A stretch of 64,000 nucleotides of DNA from Patescibacteria group bacterium (GTDB lineage: Bacteria; Patescibacteriota; UBA1384; 2-12-FULL-50-11). The DNA lies in the NCBI GenBank assembly GCA_016861245.1, contig BOKZ01000001.1:615006-679005 (forward strand), written 5' to 3'. Shown piece by piece: positions 6,608-48,483 of this stretch (positions are counted from its first letter, which is position 1; each line of letters starts with the position of its first letter). The notes below the pieces were generated by a model that saw only the letters and a program-made list of their open reading frames with translations, did no database searches and was not told the origin of the DNA. Position numbers and translations under genes: made by a program.

Positions 6608-7210
6608 ATGTTAACGCCAAAACAAAAATTAATTTTAGACTTCGTTGAGCAATTTATTAACGAAAACGACTACGCGCCAAGCTATCGTGAGATCGCCGAG
6701 CATTTTGGCTTTAGTTCGGTTGCAACTGTAGCCGAACACATTGAAAATTTACGACTCAAAGGTTACTTAGCCAACCAAGATACCGGATACCGTTCGCTTA
6801 AAGTTACTAATATCGATGTCGAGCCAGATAGCGGCTTATTTACAATCGCCGTACCGCTACTTGGTGCAATTAGGGCGGGTAAACCGGTCGAGGCAGTACG
6901 AACTAACGAAACGCTTGAGGTGCCGAGAGATATGATGGGTAAAAACGTGTTTGCGCTTAAGGTTCGCGGCGATTCGATGATGGATGACGGTATTTTGGAT
7001 GGTGATTTTGTGGTGGTTGAGCCGTGTCAGAACCCAAAAAATGGCGATATTGTGGTTGCGTTAATTAATAAAGACGAAGTTACCCTAAAACGTTTCTACC
7101 GTGAGAAAGATCATATTCGCTTACAACCGGCCAATAAGAAGTACCAGCCGATCCGAGTTAAAAAGGTGAGTATTCAGGGTAAAGTACGCGGCGTAATCCG
7201 GAAGTTCTAA
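6608..7210 (+). CDS. lexA: LexA repressor (S24 peptidase)
   Basis: N-terminal winged HTH (LTPKQKLILDFVEQFINENDYAPSYREIAEHFGF). Cleavage site VPLLGAIRAGKP. Ser-Lys dyad (GDSMMDDGILDGDFVVV...LKRF). Start set at MLTPKQ; the longer ORF from 6572 is less likely. Confidence 0.9.
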   Translation: MLTPKQKLILDFVEQFINENDYAPSYREIAEHFGFSSVATVAEHIENLRLKGYLANQDTGYRSLKVTNIDVEPDSGLFTIAVPLLGAIRAGKPVEAVRTNETLEVPRDMMGKNVFALKVRGDSMMDDGILDGDFVVVEPCQNPKNGDIVVALINKDEVTLKRFYREKDHIRLQPANKKYQPIRVKKVSIQGKVRGVIRKF

Positions 7211-23336: not shown

Positions 23337-23614
23337 TGAGCAACGTAACACTAATAGATTTCTGGGCGGCTTGGTGCGGACCGTGTAAAGTGATGCACCC
23401 GATCGTAGAAGAGCTCGAAAAAGAATATAGCGGTAAACTGACCGTTACAAAATACGACGTTGATGATCCTGCAAATCAGTCTGTAGTTCAGAAATACGAG
23501 GTTATGGCGATGCCAACGTACTTTATTGAAAAAGACGGAGAAGTGGTACAGCAGTTCGTCGGCGCTCAGAGCAAAAAGACTCTCGCCGACGCTATCGATA
23601 AAGTACTAAGTTAA
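23337..23614 (+). CDS. trxA: thioredoxin
   Basis: Active site WAAWCGPCK. AGGAGG RBS 6 nt upstream of MSNVTLIDF. About 92 aa. Confidence 0.9.
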
Positions 23615-26539
23615 TTGTTGGAACAGTTGAACGATTTCTGACTCTTCGTCATCGATAGGAAAATCTTTTCTTGAGAGTATCTCGTTGTAGGAATCTACAA
23701 CATCTCGCTTCATTTGTTTAATTTCGTCAGTAGTAATCTGAAAAACTTCGCAACGAAACGTCTTTTTATCATCGATAAATTGGATGGCGAATTCTTTTGC
23801 TTGATACGGAAAGAGTGGGTCGAGTTCGCACAGCATAGCGTAGAATACTAATTGCGCTTTCATTTTACCGTCAGAGTCCTGGGTTTTCCCTTCGATATAA
23901 TTTGCAGTTCTTGATTGTGAACCGGTTTTATAGTCGATAATTCGAACGTTTTTCGTTGTTGGGCTAATCGGTTCGATGCAGTCAATTTTACCGTTTAGCC
24001 AAATTTTTTCTAACATCACCTGGTGAGGTCTAAAACTGTACTCAGTCCCAAGCGGCCTAATCCATGTGGGGGCGTGAGAGTCGTAAAACTCACTTAATAC
24101 ATCGATGCCCTGCTCAAGAAAGGTGTCTCGGTTAGTGTACGGAATGCTCCTCTGTATCTCTTCTCTAAAGTAGAGGAGTAGTTTTTGCTTAGTCGGTAAT
24201 TTCTTGAACGCCTTGTAGTCTCGGTTAAAGCGCTCAAGGGCGGCGTGGACCGAGTCACCGTAAGCCAAGCTTGGCGTAAACGGCGTCGGTAACTTATATA
24301 CGTGTTTCAGTAAGTAAGTTCGTGGGCATGTTTTATAATCCCAGTATGCCGTGAACGAGAACGGGACTTGAGCCACACGCTCCCGGATAAAAGAGAGTTC
24401 GGCGGAGTTGATTGAGGAGTCGGGAATAGGGAAGAGTTGTTGAGTAATGAACCGGCTAAGTTGTGTTTCTTTAATCGTTAGCGGTTCCGATCGAGCAGTC
24501 GTTTCTATCTCTTTAACCAACTGGCTCGGAAGCTCATCACGACCATCAGCGCCGATTTGCGAATACGAAATAGTTAACTGCTTTCTTGCACGAGTTATCG
24601 CCACATAGAACAGTCGTCTCATATCTTCTAACTCATCATTATCAGTACCGGCCGCACCGATCAGCTCACTAGGAATTTTTACCGTAGAACGATTCGGCTT
24701 AACGCGCCAAACGCGATCGGTGGCATGAGGAATAAATACAACGTCAAACTCGAGTCCCTTTGCTTGATGGACAGTATTAATAAACACGCCCGCGGTTTCA
24801 GCGCGGGATCGATTAACTGAAAATGACAGACCGTACGTCCGATGTAGCTCAAGGTATTCGAGCCAATCAGAGAGTTGCGCGGTTTGATTTCGCTTGGCGT
24901 ACTCGCGACAATTTTCAATTAGCGTCGCCACTAACTCAAGGCTCGATAAGTGCTGCGGTCGCTTCCGAATAGCGTCGAGAACACCGCCACGATACAACAC
25001 CTCTTCGACAAGTTCCGGCACCGATAGCAGTTCTTGCCGGTGGTGCCATTCAACGAGACGCTCAGCCACATTTTTTATACCCTGGTTCGCGGTTTCAAGG
25101 GCAGCAGCGATTATTTTCTTCTTTGTTTCGCGAGCAGTATTAATTACCTCAATTACACTCAGCGCCTCTTTTGTACCGACAAGCGCTCGAAGCGCGCTGG
25201 CAACTGCCACATCGTTATTCGGATCGTTGATTGCTCGTAGTAGTTGGACTAACACTTGAACTTCTCTTTCTTTTAGCAAATCCGTACTTTGTAGGCCGGC
25301 CACCACCAAACCGGCTTTCTCAGCTGAATCACGAAAATCATTCGCTTCGCTATTAGTTCGAAAAAGTACCGCCATCTCCTCCCAAGCGATACCATCCTTG
25401 TGCAAACGGTTCAGACGATCGATGAGCGCAAAATGTTCAGCAATTTGGGTTGTAGCTACTAAAATATCTGGCTGTAACCCTGGGCTTACAGTTGCTTGTA
25501 GGGAGTCAGCGACGGCTGGGATTTGTTTTGAGAGTTGCTGGCTGTTGTGAGAAATTAATTCGTGAGCTGTTTCTAGAATTTCTGGAGAGCTTCGATAGTT
25601 TTGAGTTAGTGAAATCACTGTAAGATCGGGATACCTTCGGTAAAAATGCAGCATATTTGTCACTGAAGCGCCCTGGAAGCGGTAGATGGCTTGTTTATCG
25701 TCACCGACGACAAATAAATTTGGCGTCTCGAAAAAATCAGCGAGTAACTCGACTAATTTATTCTGAGCGTTGTTAGTATCTTGATACTCATCAACTAAAA
25801 TATATTGATACCGTTCCTGAAAATATGCTTTAACTTCGGCGTTTTTTTGTAGCGCCGAGAGTGCCAGTAGAATCATATCTTCGTAGTCGTAGACAGAGCG
25901 ACGTTCTAACTCTTTTTGGTACTCCGTTAAAATCTCTGCGAACTCGAGCAGGATCTGGCTCGTTCGTTTGTTCCGTTCAGCTTCAGTCTTATTTTTTACT
26001 TTTTTCCGACCGAGCGCTTGGACGTACGTAACTATCTGATTAACCTCGATCGCTTCCTGCTTAGCCGTCCTAATCGCGCTCGCGATATCGCGAACGTGCG
26101 CCGTTTCGCTTCGAAGTGGACGCAGTAATTTTACTGATGGATTTTTTTTAATGATCTTCTCAAGTAGTAGTAGGCGCTCAAGATTATCTAGTTGAGTGAG
26201 TGTACGAGCGGTTGAAAAAATATGGGGGAAGGTGCCGATAACTTCGTTAGCGAAACCGTGGAACGTTGCGATCGTTACTTGATATGAAACAGCACCGATA
26301 TATTTGGTAAGACGCTCTCTTAGAGCCACAACACCGGCTTCAGTGAAAGTAAGCGCTAAAATATTTTTTGCCGACAGCTGAGTGCTCTGTAAGATAGCTG
26401 CAATTCTAAGCGCGACAACTTGTGTTTTACCCGTACCCGGTCCCGCTACTACCATCACCGGGCCCTCAATCGCTTCGACAGCTTGTCGCTGAGCAGTGTT
26501 AAGTTTGCGCAACTCTTTTCTAAATCGGTTTTCGCTCAT
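23606..26539 (-). CDS. UvrD/PcrA-family SF1 helicase fused to a C-terminal PD-(D/E)xK (RecB/AddB-like) nuclease domain
   Basis: 977 aa. Walker A VMVVAGPGTGKTQV. A UvrD-like helicase core fills the N-terminal two thirds. The C-terminal region carries IDYKTG...FYAMLCE, a RecB-family nuclease signature. Confidence 0.75.
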   Translation of the reverse strand: MSENRFRKELRKLNTAQRQAVEAIEGPVMVVAGPGTGKTQVVALRIAAILQSTQLSAKNILALTFTEAGVVALRERLTKYIGAVSYQVTIATFHGFANEVIGTFPHIFSTARTLTQLDNLERLLLLEKIIKKNPSVKLLRPLRSETAHVRDIASAIRTAKQEAIEVNQIVTYVQALGRKKVKNKTEAERNKRTSQILLEFAEILTEYQKELERRSVYDYEDMILLALSALQKNAEVKAYFQERYQYILVDEYQDTNNAQNKLVELLADFFETPNLFVVGDDKQAIYRFQGASVTNMLHFYRRYPDLTVISLTQNYRSSPEILETAHELISHNSQQLSKQIPAVADSLQATVSPGLQPDILVATTQIAEHFALIDRLNRLHKDGIAWEEMAVLFRTNSEANDFRDSAEKAGLVVAGLQSTDLLKEREVQVLVQLLRAINDPNNDVAVASALRALVGTKEALSVIEVINTARETKKKIIAAALETANQGIKNVAERLVEWHHRQELLSVPELVEEVLYRGGVLDAIRKRPQHLSSLELVATLIENCREYAKRNQTAQLSDWLEYLELHRTYGLSFSVNRSRAETAGVFINTVHQAKGLEFDVVFIPHATDRVWRVKPNRSTVKIPSELIGAAGTDNDELEDMRRLFYVAITRARKQLTISYSQIGADGRDELPSQLVKEIETTARSEPLTIKETQLSRFITQQLFPIPDSSINSAELSFIRERVAQVPFSFTAYWDYKTCPRTYLLKHVYKLPTPFTPSLAYGDSVHAALERFNRDYKAFKKLPTKQKLLLYFREEIQRSIPYTNRDTFLEQGIDVLSEFYDSHAPTWIRPLGTEYSFRPHQVMLEKIWLNGKIDCIEPISPTTKNVRIIDYKTGSQSRTANYIEGKTQDSDGKMKAQLVFYAMLCELDPLFPYQAKEFAIQFIDDKKTFRCEVFQITTDEIKQMKRDVVDSYNEILSRKDFPIDDEESEIVQLFQQLT

Positions 26540-26614
26540 CGAGGGTTAGTCTAATGCTTTTCGTAGTTCTCTCCAAGTCGGCCCCTTGACAATAATTTAC
26601 CGATCGTTCAGAAT

Positions 26615-26880
26615 ATTCGTACCTCGTCAAAGGCAACGCGACCGGAGACGAGCCGCGACCCACAGTCGCGGTGCAGCTGCTCCTTTCAGGAGCGCAACCG
26701 TACCTGGAAAGGTGACGACAACCACCCTGTCGGTAGAGACCACCAAGTGTCTCACAAGCCGATACGGTCCCCCCGCGTCTCACGCGGTAAGTGTTCGTCG
26801 TCGAACGGTCATCCGATCGGGCCCTGGCGCCCGAGCCCCCAATACCGCCCTCCTGTTTGGTGCGTGAGGGGGTCTTTTTT
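26615..26880 (+). ncRNA. candidate structured non-coding RNA (GC-rich, hairpin-dense, promoter and terminator present; family unidentified)
   Basis: About 260 nt at roughly 62% GC in a 48% GC background. A TTGACA -35 lies at 26586. There are at least six local perfect stems (CCGCGAC/GTCGCGG, GCTCC/GGAGC, GAGAC/GTCTC, CCGCG/CGCGG, CGTTCG/CGAACG, TCGGGC/GCCCGA). It ends with CCCTC...GAGGGGG + T8. ORFs in all frames are Arg-rich junk. Confidence 0.4.
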
Positions 26881-26894
26881 TATACACTAACACT

Positions 26895-27602
26895 ATGAAT
26901 CAACCAGAAATCATCGCCGAAACTAACGACTACTTTGTAATAAACAAGCCGGCCGATATGGCGGTAGAGCCGCCATCAAAGCAAAAAACATTACTGGATT
27001 GGCTACTACAAACCAAAAGAATATCTACTGACGGCTGGGAACTGGAGAGTCGTTACGGCGTAGTTCACAGGCTTGATACCGACACATCAGGCGTTATTAT
27101 TTGGGCAAAAAACCCTGCATCACAACAAAACTTGAAACAACTCTGGCAGGGGAGAGCCGTTAAAAAAACCTATCTGGCATTGGTGATAGGGGAGTGTCCA
27201 CAAAACGGCACGATCGAACTTCCGCTCGTGCGCGATAATAAGAACGATCGCCAAGCCATTGCCTGGCTAACGGACCAGCGCGCTCGAGCGGCGATTACCG
27301 ATTACGAGCGAATCGCTATCGGCAGTATCGATTCGTTACAGTGTAGTTTAGTACGAGCGCATCCGATTACTGGTAGAACCCATCAAATCCGCGTTCACCT
27401 AAAGGCGATCGGACATCCGATTATCGGCGATGAGCTTTACGGCGAAAAATCGACCGACACGCTCGCTAAAAAACTACATATCAGCCGTCAGTTTCTTCAC
27501 GCAACCGAGCTTTGCCTACCAAACACAGATTGTTATCGCGCCAACCTACCGAAAGAGCTAGTCGAATCGCTTAGTGCTGCCGGGATCGACTACGTTGAGT
27601 AA
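26895..27602 (+). CDS. rluA: RluA-family pseudouridine synthase
   Basis: 235 aa. Catalytic motif HRLDTDTSGVIIWAKN. No S4 domain. Confidence 0.85.
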   Translation: MNQPEIIAETNDYFVINKPADMAVEPPSKQKTLLDWLLQTKRISTDGWELESRYGVVHRLDTDTSGVIIWAKNPASQQNLKQLWQGRAVKKTYLALVIGECPQNGTIELPLVRDNKNDRQAIAWLTDQRARAAITDYERIAIGSIDSLQCSLVRAHPITGRTHQIRVHLKAIGHPIIGDELYGEKSTDTLAKKLHISRQFLHATELCLPNTDCYRANLPKELVESLSAAGIDYVE

Positions 27603-48126: not shown

Positions 48127-48264
48127 AGGCAAATCTTGGTGGAGGCGCCGGGAATTGAACCCGGTTCCAAAAAGAGAAACACGATGTCGTTGGTTTTTGT
48201 TTAGGCATTTTCCCAACTTGAGCTACCACGCTCAGACTTCGCTCTTACCCTCTCTGTCGAACCC
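48127..48264 (-). ncRNA. ssrA: tmRNA (ssrA)-like gene comprising only the tRNA-like domain and P2 helix (138 nt; no tag reading frame found)
   Basis: The minus-strand 5' end GGGGGCGUAAGGGUUCGACAGAGAGGG matches the tmRNA 5' consensus (compare B. subtilis GGGGACGUUACGGAUUCGACAGGGAUGG). The 3' end AUCGUGUUUCUCUUUUUGGAACCGGGUUCAAUUCCCGGCGCCUCCACCA matches the tmRNA T-arm/acceptor/CCA (compare AUCGAUGUUUCUGGACGUGGGUUCGACUCCCACCGUCUCCACCA). The 5' GGGGGCG pairs with the 3' CGCCUCC. The body is far too short for pseudoknots or a tag ORF. Confidence 0.55.
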
Positions 48265-48483
48265 TTACGCCCCCACTGCTTGGGTACCAAAAACTGCCAC
48301 TGCTTTCCAATTCGCCTCATCAGCATTAATCGGAACAATCGAGACAAGGTTCCAGCCCCGTTCTGACATTTCATCGAAGGAAATTGGTTCTTCTGCAAAC
48401 TGCAAGTCTCTGACTCGCAGACAGACGTTTTTCTCGCTGTCCACTGTTGCAACTATTGGTAGGGTTCTGTATTGCATATTCAC
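48265..48483 (-). CDS. hypothetical small protein (72 aa) abutting the tmRNA-like 5' end
   Basis: MNMQYRTLPIVATVDSEKNVCLRVRDLQFAEEPISFDEMSERGWNLVSIVPINADEANWKAVAVFGTQAVGA. Balanced composition. Not SmpB. Confidence 0.35.
   Translation of the reverse strand: MNMQYRTLPIVATVDSEKNVCLRVRDLQFAEEPISFDEMSERGWNLVSIVPINADEANWKAVAVFGTQAVGA

Follow-up and report, generated by a model that had tools for sequence, protein, structure and literature searches.

A GC-rich RNA element lies in a 355-nucleotide (nt) spacer of contig BOKZ01000001.1 from a Patescibacteria group bacterium (GenBank assembly GCA_016861245.1), between a helicase gene on the minus strand and the divergently oriented rluA gene on the plus strand. 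The whole stretch of DNA analyzed, 64,000 nt long, is referred to below as the window, and L numbers designate the loci of relatives with which it was compared. The G+C fraction (GC) of the element is 0.63 in 150-nt windows versus ~0.45 in the flanks, and of all 120-nt windows in the 64 kb, the one with the highest GC falls within it (0.667 versus a window mean of 0.473). An earlier note made from the letters alone, which reported an island of about 260 nt with roughly 62% GC, had thus picked out the strongest short GC island in 64 kb. The features assigned to the element are the following, with the evidence for each in brackets:

26586–26591, plus strand: −35 hexamer TTGACA of the RNA gene (promoter scan; invariant in this window, L087, L090 and L092, present in L099)
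26609–26614, plus strand: −10 hexamer CAGAAT of the RNA gene, after a 17-nt spacer (promoter scan)
26620–26881, plus strand: predicted RNA, ~262 nt, 61–64% GC (composition, folding, homologs found with a covariance model, CM)
26623–26652, plus strand: hairpin H1, CUCGUC / GACGAG with an 18-nt loop (helix 1, double changes in 4 of 6 pairs; hand table)
26653–26671, plus strand: hairpin H2, CCGCGAC-CCACA-GUCGCGG (helix 2; hand table)
26676–26695, plus strand: hairpin H3, GC(U)GCUCC-UUUCA-GGAGCGC (helix 3, double changes in 5 of 7 pairs; hand table)
26699–26717, plus strand: hairpin H4, CGUACCU-GGAA-AGGU(G)ACG with one bulged G (helix 4; hand table)
26724–26768, plus strand: three-part hairpin H5 (minimum free energy, MFE, folds; helices 5–7; hand table)
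26773–26787, plus strand: hairpin H6, CCGCGU-CUC-ACGCGG (helix 8; MFE folds)
26793–26806, plus strand: hairpin H7, GUUCG-UCGU-CGAAC (covaries in five lineages, hand table)
26817–26834, plus strand: hairpin H8, UCGGGC-CCUGGC-GCCCGA (stem search; hand table)
26836–26872, plus strand: terminator hairpin H9, with a CCCCC/GGGGG base, an AAY/A internal loop and an inner (U/C)AC.CGC / GCGUG helix (alignments; helix 11; hand table)
26873–26881, plus strand: U-tract UCUUUUUUU of the intrinsic terminator (sequence; T-run invariant in homologs)

Structure and conservation of the hairpin string

The element is a real conserved structured RNA, whose helices are maintained by compensatory substitutions. This was established with a CM-guided alignment, A10, comprising four independent lineages and one near-identical strain. 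In A10, 96.4% of the 307 pair cells are canonical, and changes on both sides were found in 24 of the 68 pairs versus 8.9 ± 2.3 in column shuffles (0 of 500 shuffles reached this number), whereas control alignments in which the partners were slid by 1–3 columns gave only 0–5 double-change pairs. A table of helices compiled by hand for five lineages, including L098, and ten helical segments has canonical pairs in 265 of 265 cases. L098 was aligned by hand, and sub-region alignments made with MAFFT, which misplaced several stems, were left out of the pair counts. Independent MFE folding of each homolog returns the same hairpin series. The proposal that the GC-rich island is a structured RNA, and the folding and covariation check suggested for it on homologous intergenic regions, are therefore borne out, with covariation in four to five lineages supporting nine helices. 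The 16 G-U cells and 0 A-C cells in the hand table, together with the promoter and the terminator, identify the plus strand as the RNA.

In the window's own copy of the element, the MFE of the fold is −107.8 kcal/mol, with z = −2.9 for the plus strand (1 of 200 shuffles folds as well) and z = −1.8 for the minus strand. Its perfect local stems comprise one of 7 bp (CCGCGAC/GUCGCGG), those of 6 bp (CUCGUC/GACGAG, GCUCCU/AGGAGC, CCGCGU/ACGCGG and UCGGGC/GCCCGA) and those of 5 bp (GAGAC/GUCUC, GUUCG/CGAAC and CCCCC/GGGGG), so that at least eight were counted where at least six had been reported from the sequence.

The hairpins differ in the way they are conserved. H1, H2, H3, H5, H7 and H8 covary freely, and hairpin loops are not conserved, whereas three elements are near-invariant in sequence, namely H4, the asymmetric internal loop of H5 (GGU-A-G ... 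C-ACAA) and H9. The stem of H4 is invariant (CCGUACCU-loop-AGGU-G-AYGA, i.e., ...GGUGAYGA), its loop is variable, and 6 of its 7 pairs never vary, the only change being one from G-C to G-U. In H5, a closing stem is followed by GUCGGU/GCCGAU, the asymmetric internal loop with an A opposite ACAA (conserved GGUAG...CACAA) and the apical stem GAGAC/GUCUC; this architecture was also found in L098, where the pairs were checked and ACACA takes the place of ACAA. The region of H6 is variable and contains an additional hairpin in L090. The H1 loop of this genome contains GCAACGCGAC (26633–26642), which could pair with GUCGCGGUGC, the 3' strand of H2 (26665–26674); this 10-nt, 90% complementary alternative to H2 is peculiar to the genome and is not seen in L090, L092 or L099.

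The predicted promoter, TTGACA-17-CAGAAT, agrees with a sigma-70-like consensus at 10 of 12 positions. Its support consists of this agreement and of the conservation in homologs of the −35 box, which had been noted earlier at 26586; the promoter scan by itself is not significant (3 sites versus 1.0 ± 1.0 in shuffles). From spacing alone, the RNA is predicted to start near 26620–26622. At the other end, as befits a free-standing small RNA (sRNA), the unit has its own intrinsic terminator, a GC-rich hairpin plus U7 that is conserved in homologs. Its stem is kept in all of them as CCCCC (26836–26840) / GGGGG (26868–26872) plus the inner CAC.CGC/GCGUG helix, the sequence of H9 being almost invariant (CCCCCAAYA...GUGCGUGA.GGGG) and 7 of its 10 pairs never varying. 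The T-run TCTTTTTTT comprises seven consecutive T residues (26875–26881) and ends 13 nt upstream of the ATG at 26895. The earlier note correctly placed a strong terminator with its T-run before rluA, but the CCCTC...GAGGG stem given there depends on an insertion found in this genome alone, and the note counted eight T residues and 14 nt to the gene.

The element is non-coding, as had been proposed, since no reading frame is conserved across homologs. Stop-free stretches vary among them by strand, frame and length, and the only protein-level matches are local ones of 12–24 residues, which are explained by nucleotide conservation.

Relatives and clade range

Contigs encoding an identical RluA have an identical spacer as well. 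A homologous element was found at the same site in L087, L090, L098, L092 and L099, with RluA proteins 95, 74, 71, 70 and 69% identical to that of the window, and this homology is backed by a family hidden Markov model (HMM). A CM built from positions 26622–26876 of the window scores 60 bits in L090, 34 bits in L092 and 25 bits in L099. For L098, pairwise scores exceed those of shuffles by 5–21 standard deviations against L090, L092 and L099 and are not significant against this window (z 1.9). Divergence is fast, the primary sequence being barely alignable outside a few blocks at 70% RluA identity.

In sister lineages with RluA ~60% identical and full 20-kb synteny, only 49–190 nt separate the helicase gene from rluA, and the CM of the element has no match in these syntenic loci. 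Because of these short spacers, the element is restricted to a narrow clade of Patescibacteria, ultra-small bacteria of the large and uncultivated candidate phyla radiation (CPR); the search for conservation in relatives that had been called for thus found the element conserved, though only within this clade. TTGACA-17-GAGAAT is also present in the sister lineages L251 and L093, where it is followed by unrelated units of 75–105 nt before rluA, and a terminator-like hairpin lies immediately 5' of the rluA −10 hexamer in L251 (9847–10000) and L094 (2336–2500). When the short units of L251, L093 (~366–477) and L094 were compared with the 3' domain of the RNA by nhmmer and blastn, no similarity was detected apart from the promoter. 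It looks as if a slot for a short transcript has been conserved upstream of rluA.

A different unit occupies the same site in L100 (positions 185–524; RluA 74% identical), an AT-rich (46% GC) unit of ~300 nt that runs from a TTGACA promoter to a CCCCCC-UUCG-GGGGGG terminator; the helicase gene is not found upstream of this unit. We considered it as a decayed homolog for its local ATTkGTAGAA...GGCTTsACAA likeness and rejected this, the Smith–Waterman scores being no better than those of shuffles (z ≤ 1.7); the site was either replaced or has decayed past recognition. Among the matches listed from an RluA-profile search of genome contigs, two CPR loci (L007 and L008, 50% identity) both lack the element.

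Beyond these loci, the pattern CCCCNAYAN{3,20}GTGCGTGN{0,2}GGGG, which is loose for GC-rich DNA, gave 120 chance matches in metagenome contigs, none of them a homolog by the family HMM. In viral contigs, the 30 matches to the terminator pattern and the eight to a combined H4 and H5 pattern were all due to chance. The element has none of the marks of a mobile element or repeat: blastn against phage and plasmid collections gave no match to it, no internal or window-wide repeats were found, and it is present in a single copy in the 64-kb window. Several independent assemblies break in or at the element: L098 begins within it, L089 at 266 nt before rluA (8 nt past the predicted transcription start) and L005 at 65 nt before rluA. 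Micro-diversity among strains could account for these breaks, as could reads derived from RNA in the runs concerned.

Known RNA families, neighboring genes and rival explanations

The window and its homologs were searched with cmscan against the 4227 models of Rfam 15. At gathering thresholds, the whole window contains only a transfer-messenger RNA (tmRNA) at 48137–48274; at E ≤ 10, the region of the element has one 15.9-bit chance match to 'hya' on the minus strand; and at E ≤ 5, nothing was found inside the element in five homologous loci. Rows for 'SorX' and 'VqmR' were dismissed as chance matches, since they either fall outside the element or are on the opposite strand. The earlier view that the element matches neither RNase P RNA, tmRNA, signal recognition particle (SRP) RNA nor riboswitches therefore agrees with Rfam. 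The family consensus contains no RNase P P4 or CR-I to CR-V blocks, no SRP domain-IV motif (GNAR loop with AGCA) and no tRNA-like ends. Among the three identities offered earlier, 6S-like RNA finds no support, because the covarying helices form local hairpins rather than a rod with a central bubble, there is no 5'–3' closing stem, and no 6S model matches; a lineage-specific sRNA fits best. Other candidates were weighed by eye and abandoned. A T-box was dismissed because UACCGC occurs in H9 of this genome only, a tRNA D-arm because GUCGGUAGAG has a different pairing here, a K-turn in H4 because tandem G-A is missing, a TIGR or CRISPR-like array because direct repeats are absent, and mimicry of the RluD substrate H69 because CCGUA alone is common to both; domain 5 of group II introns was likewise dropped. 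No account of such an RNA in CPR turned up in literature searches. The RNA family is new to Rfam; as a kind of object, orphan structured sRNAs that are specific to one lineage and stand out as GC-rich intergenic islands are already familiar.

The genes around the element and the signals assigned to them, together with the tmRNA gene, are:

23606–26539, minus strand: UvrD-type helicase with a C-terminal PD-(D/E)XK nuclease domain, 977 amino acids (open reading frame, ORF; Pfam PF00580, PF13361 and PF12705 on an identical product)
26548–26553, minus strand: putative −10-like hexamer TAGACT, 8 nt before the helicase ATG (sequence; AGTCTA invariant in the four lineages of alignment A2)
26571–26576, minus strand: putative −35-like hexamer TTGGAG of the helicase gene, with a 17-nt spacer (sequence; TCCAA invariant in A2)
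26883–26888, plus strand: −10-like hexamer TACACT, 6 nt before the rluA ATG, a putative leaderless arrangement (conserved in ten lineages)
26895–27602, plus strand: rluA-family pseudouridine synthase, 235 amino acids (PF00849), first gene of rluA-manC-secD-secF
48137–48274, minus strand: tmRNA gene, 138 nt (Rfam model, 75.2 bits)

The best relatives of this RluA are annotated as Patescibacteria, Saccharimonadales or Berkelbacteria. The helicase gene has an apparent near-leaderless promoter (26540–26580, minus strand) that consists of TTGGAG, 17 nt, TAGACT and 8 nt before the ATG. Two divergent promoters would thus stand back-to-back in the spacer with 9 nt between them, and both helicase hexamers are invariant in homologs. 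In the tmRNA, the tRNA-like domain is complete and is accompanied by one short helix and the tag ORF (AKSERGSSSWENA*), with 42 nt in place of 274 Rfam model positions that include all pseudoknots. ARAGORN, which predicts the same tag, places the 5' end of the gene at 48319. The tmRNA seems to be minimized to an extreme degree, and the ending of its tag is unusual.

Whether the RNA is a separate gene or the leader of rluA depends largely on the start of rluA itself. A hexamer TACACT, TACAAT, TAAAAT or TATAAT stands 6–7 nt before the rluA ATG in this window, L090, L092, L098, L099, L100, L095, L007, L008 and L251, which include lineages lacking the element; in the window it adjoins the terminator U-tract. 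The arrangement TANNNT, 6 nt, start codon was found in 7 of 46 window genes versus ~1 at other offsets (e.g., at 6608, 10752, 26895, 27630 and, on the minus strand, 38660, 44995 and 62075), and this enrichment at 6 nt shows the leaderless-promoter signature to be real in this genome. It indicates that leaderless mRNAs are frequent here, though 20 of the 46 genes have Shine–Dalgarno (SD)-like motifs; rluA has none. The RNA is set against two explanations that act in cis. As a 5' leader of rluA-manC-secDF, either a riboswitch or a protein-dependent attenuator, it would let a ligand or protein decide between termination at H9 and read-through. The layout is that of a leader, with a promoter, ~240 nt of conserved structure, a strong terminator and an ATG 13 nt further on; the element adjoins rluA in all five lineages that have it, and sister lineages keep the TTGACA promoter with shorter terminator-ended units before rluA. 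However, the conserved −10-like hexamer 6 nt before the ATG has the leaderless spacing of this genome, and read-through would put an AUG without SD behind a long structured leader, though SDs are common here. No segment complementary to either H9 strand (CCCCCAAYAC or GUGCGUGAGGGGG) that could act as an antiterminator is conserved upstream in the five lineages (by eye on MFE folds), no riboswitch or T-box model scores even weakly, and nine separate hairpins in a string are unlike known aptamers. Nor does the element accompany the same gene class across lineages: syntenic rluA orthologs at ~60% identity have short spacers and no CM match, so the element is not a general feature of rluA regulation. 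A leader function, the last of the three identities suggested earlier, is thus disfavored; we consider it unlikely, and the RNA is probably not the leader of rluA. The other cis explanation is a module for interference or insulation, in which transcription from TTGACA ends on the rluA core promoter and occludes it or shields it from the helicase promoter, the RNA being a by-product. The U-tract does touch the rluA −10 in every lineage, including the sister units of 75–105 nt that are unrelated in sequence. A by-product, however, would not keep nine helices by compensatory change, or the H4 and H5 motifs far from the terminator, and a GC content 15 points over background implies selection on the RNA; we hold this explanation to be very unlikely.

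The remaining rivals concern what a free-standing transcript would be. A regulatory sRNA that pairs through a conserved seed with mRNAs encoded elsewhere agrees with the predicted promoter and terminator, with a size in the sRNA range and with a clade-restricted fast evolution typical of regulatory sRNAs. Against it, the conserved nucleotides sit in stems (H4 and H9) or in very short internal loops (A/ACAA), there is no conserved single-stranded stretch of at least 7 nt for a seed, and 260 nt with nine covarying helices is far more structure than a seed carrier needs; this makes base pairing a rather unlikely function. The GC-rich structure with its predicted promoter and terminator would also suit a very divergent housekeeping RNA (RNase P RNA, 6S RNA or a large SRP RNA) missed by Rfam in CPR, whose RNAs can be aberrant, as the tmRNA of only 138 nt in the same window illustrates. 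Such an identity is hardly credible given that no model matches at E ≤ 10 in the window and E ≤ 5 in four other homologs, that the consensus has no sequence resembling P4/CR-I or SRP domain IV, and that the covarying helices are local, with no 5'–3' closing stem or rod; moreover, the element is gone from the syntenic site in close sisters and evolves much faster than housekeeping RNAs. A non-functional GC-rich remnant of a decayed gene or inserted DNA, folding by chance, would explain the clade restriction and the AT-rich sequence without significant similarity at the same site in L100, but 96–100% of the pairs are kept by compensatory change where the sequence is barely alignable, promoter and terminator are conserved, and neither a conserved frame nor a repeat or mobile-element signature is present, which renders this option highly improbable. 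Finally, the element might found a new class of large noncoding RNA (ncRNA) with a complex fold in CPR. It would be a ribonucleoprotein scaffold or a catalytic RNA with the invariant H4 bulge and H5 loop as its functional core, and would have a function not known elsewhere in bacteria, possibly tied to the leaderless-rich, tmRNA-minimized gene expression of this lineage. We regard this as quite improbable.

We therefore favor a structured small RNA that is free-standing, confined to one clade and assigned to a new family, and consider this identity likely. The RNA would be transcribed from its own sigma-70-type promoter TTGACA-17-CAGAAT and stop at its own intrinsic terminator (H9 and U7), abutting the −10 box of a leaderless rluA. 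In the resulting string of nine hairpins, most stems drift in sequence while their pairing is kept. Acting in trans, the RNA would be a stable molecule that binds proteins or serves as a scaffold, with the invariant bulge and internal-loop motifs as its recognition sites; the bulged hairpin H4, the internal loop of H5 and H9 are candidate protein-binding sites. This mechanism is proposed tentatively; the argument for it is that selection acts on stems in general and on three invariant motifs and not on loops or a single-stranded seed. Taken as a whole, a free-standing ncRNA gene of ~260 nt, founding a new clade-restricted family and acting in trans by protein binding, is the best explanation, and we lean toward it slightly. 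The role of the RNA is probably accessory rather than essential, given its restriction to one narrow clade, the short spacers of the syntenic sister lineages and the different sequence found in L100.

Several points weigh against this explanation. The transcript ends, the independence from rluA, the trans action and the protein binding are what we infer from sequence; promoter, start site and terminator are consensus-based predictions, and trans action and protein binding are guesses from the conservation pattern only. The independent lineages number only four to five, and the fitting of the alignments to the structure inflates the pairing statistics. The hairpin-string architecture shows no sign of a compact tertiary fold, and H9 could instead be invariant because it overlaps the upstream portion of the rluA promoter. 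Because L251 and L093 keep TTGACA-17-GAGAAT with unrelated units, a promoter–terminator unit at this site would be older than the 260-nt RNA; in these sister lineages the promoter would drive far shorter units, which leaves room for a cis role, and a cis contribution by promoter occlusion or insulation may exist at the site.

Significance and comparison with known systems

The genomes of CPR/Patescibacteria are ~1 Mb in size and heavily streamlined, and to our knowledge almost nothing is known about their regulatory and structural RNAs. A 260-nt RNA with a GC content 15 points over background and nine maintained helices is very unlikely to be idle in such a genome. With its predicted promoter, its terminator and its invariant motifs, the element is a tractable candidate that would be useful for finding CPR-specific RNA-binding proteins or RNA functions, and the junction at which its terminator meets the promoter of a putatively leaderless rluA provides a compact example of transcription-unit packing. 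The narrow range of the family makes it a good lead rather than a surprise, and nothing so far points to a new mechanism.

6S RNA (ssrS), which is present in most bacteria, resembles the element as a stand-alone structured RNA of the abundant type, 150–300 nt long, that has a promoter of its own and is richer in GC than the genome. It folds, however, into one long irregular helix that is closed by 5'–3' pairing and contains a large central bubble, whereas the element consists of nine local hairpins. Attenuating leaders such as riboswitches, T-boxes and ribosomal protein leaders share with the element a structured domain followed by an intrinsic terminator just 5' of a gene. They differ from it in that rluA probably has its own −10, no conserved antiterminator pairing is seen (by eye), sister orthologs lack the element and no model matches. 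RNAs of the CsrB/RsmZ type are multi-hairpin, trans-acting sRNAs that sequester proteins. The analogy to them, in which protein binding by the element is presumed, lies in the multi-hairpin build and in a function that resides in protein-binding motifs and not in base pairing; CsrB repeats GGA in many loops, whereas the loops of the element are variable and the H4 bulge, the H5 loop and H9 occur once each.

The motif surveys of Weinberg and Breaker have reportedly yielded orphan structured ncRNAs such as the raiA motif RNA, Chloroflexi-1, Acido-1 and Dictyoglomi-1. Unlike these motifs, all of which are in Rfam, the element has no match by cmscan at E ≤ 5–10, belongs to the phylum Patescibacteria and has its nine hairpins arranged in a linear string instead of around a multi-way junction. 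The GC-rich intergenic region (GC-IGR) approach is described in PMC8723152. Like the orphan motifs, the element is a GC-rich island in a lower-GC genome, has its own predicted promoter and intrinsic terminator and several covarying hairpins, is confined to one lineage, and adjoins a translation-related gene with which it is probably not co-transcribed.

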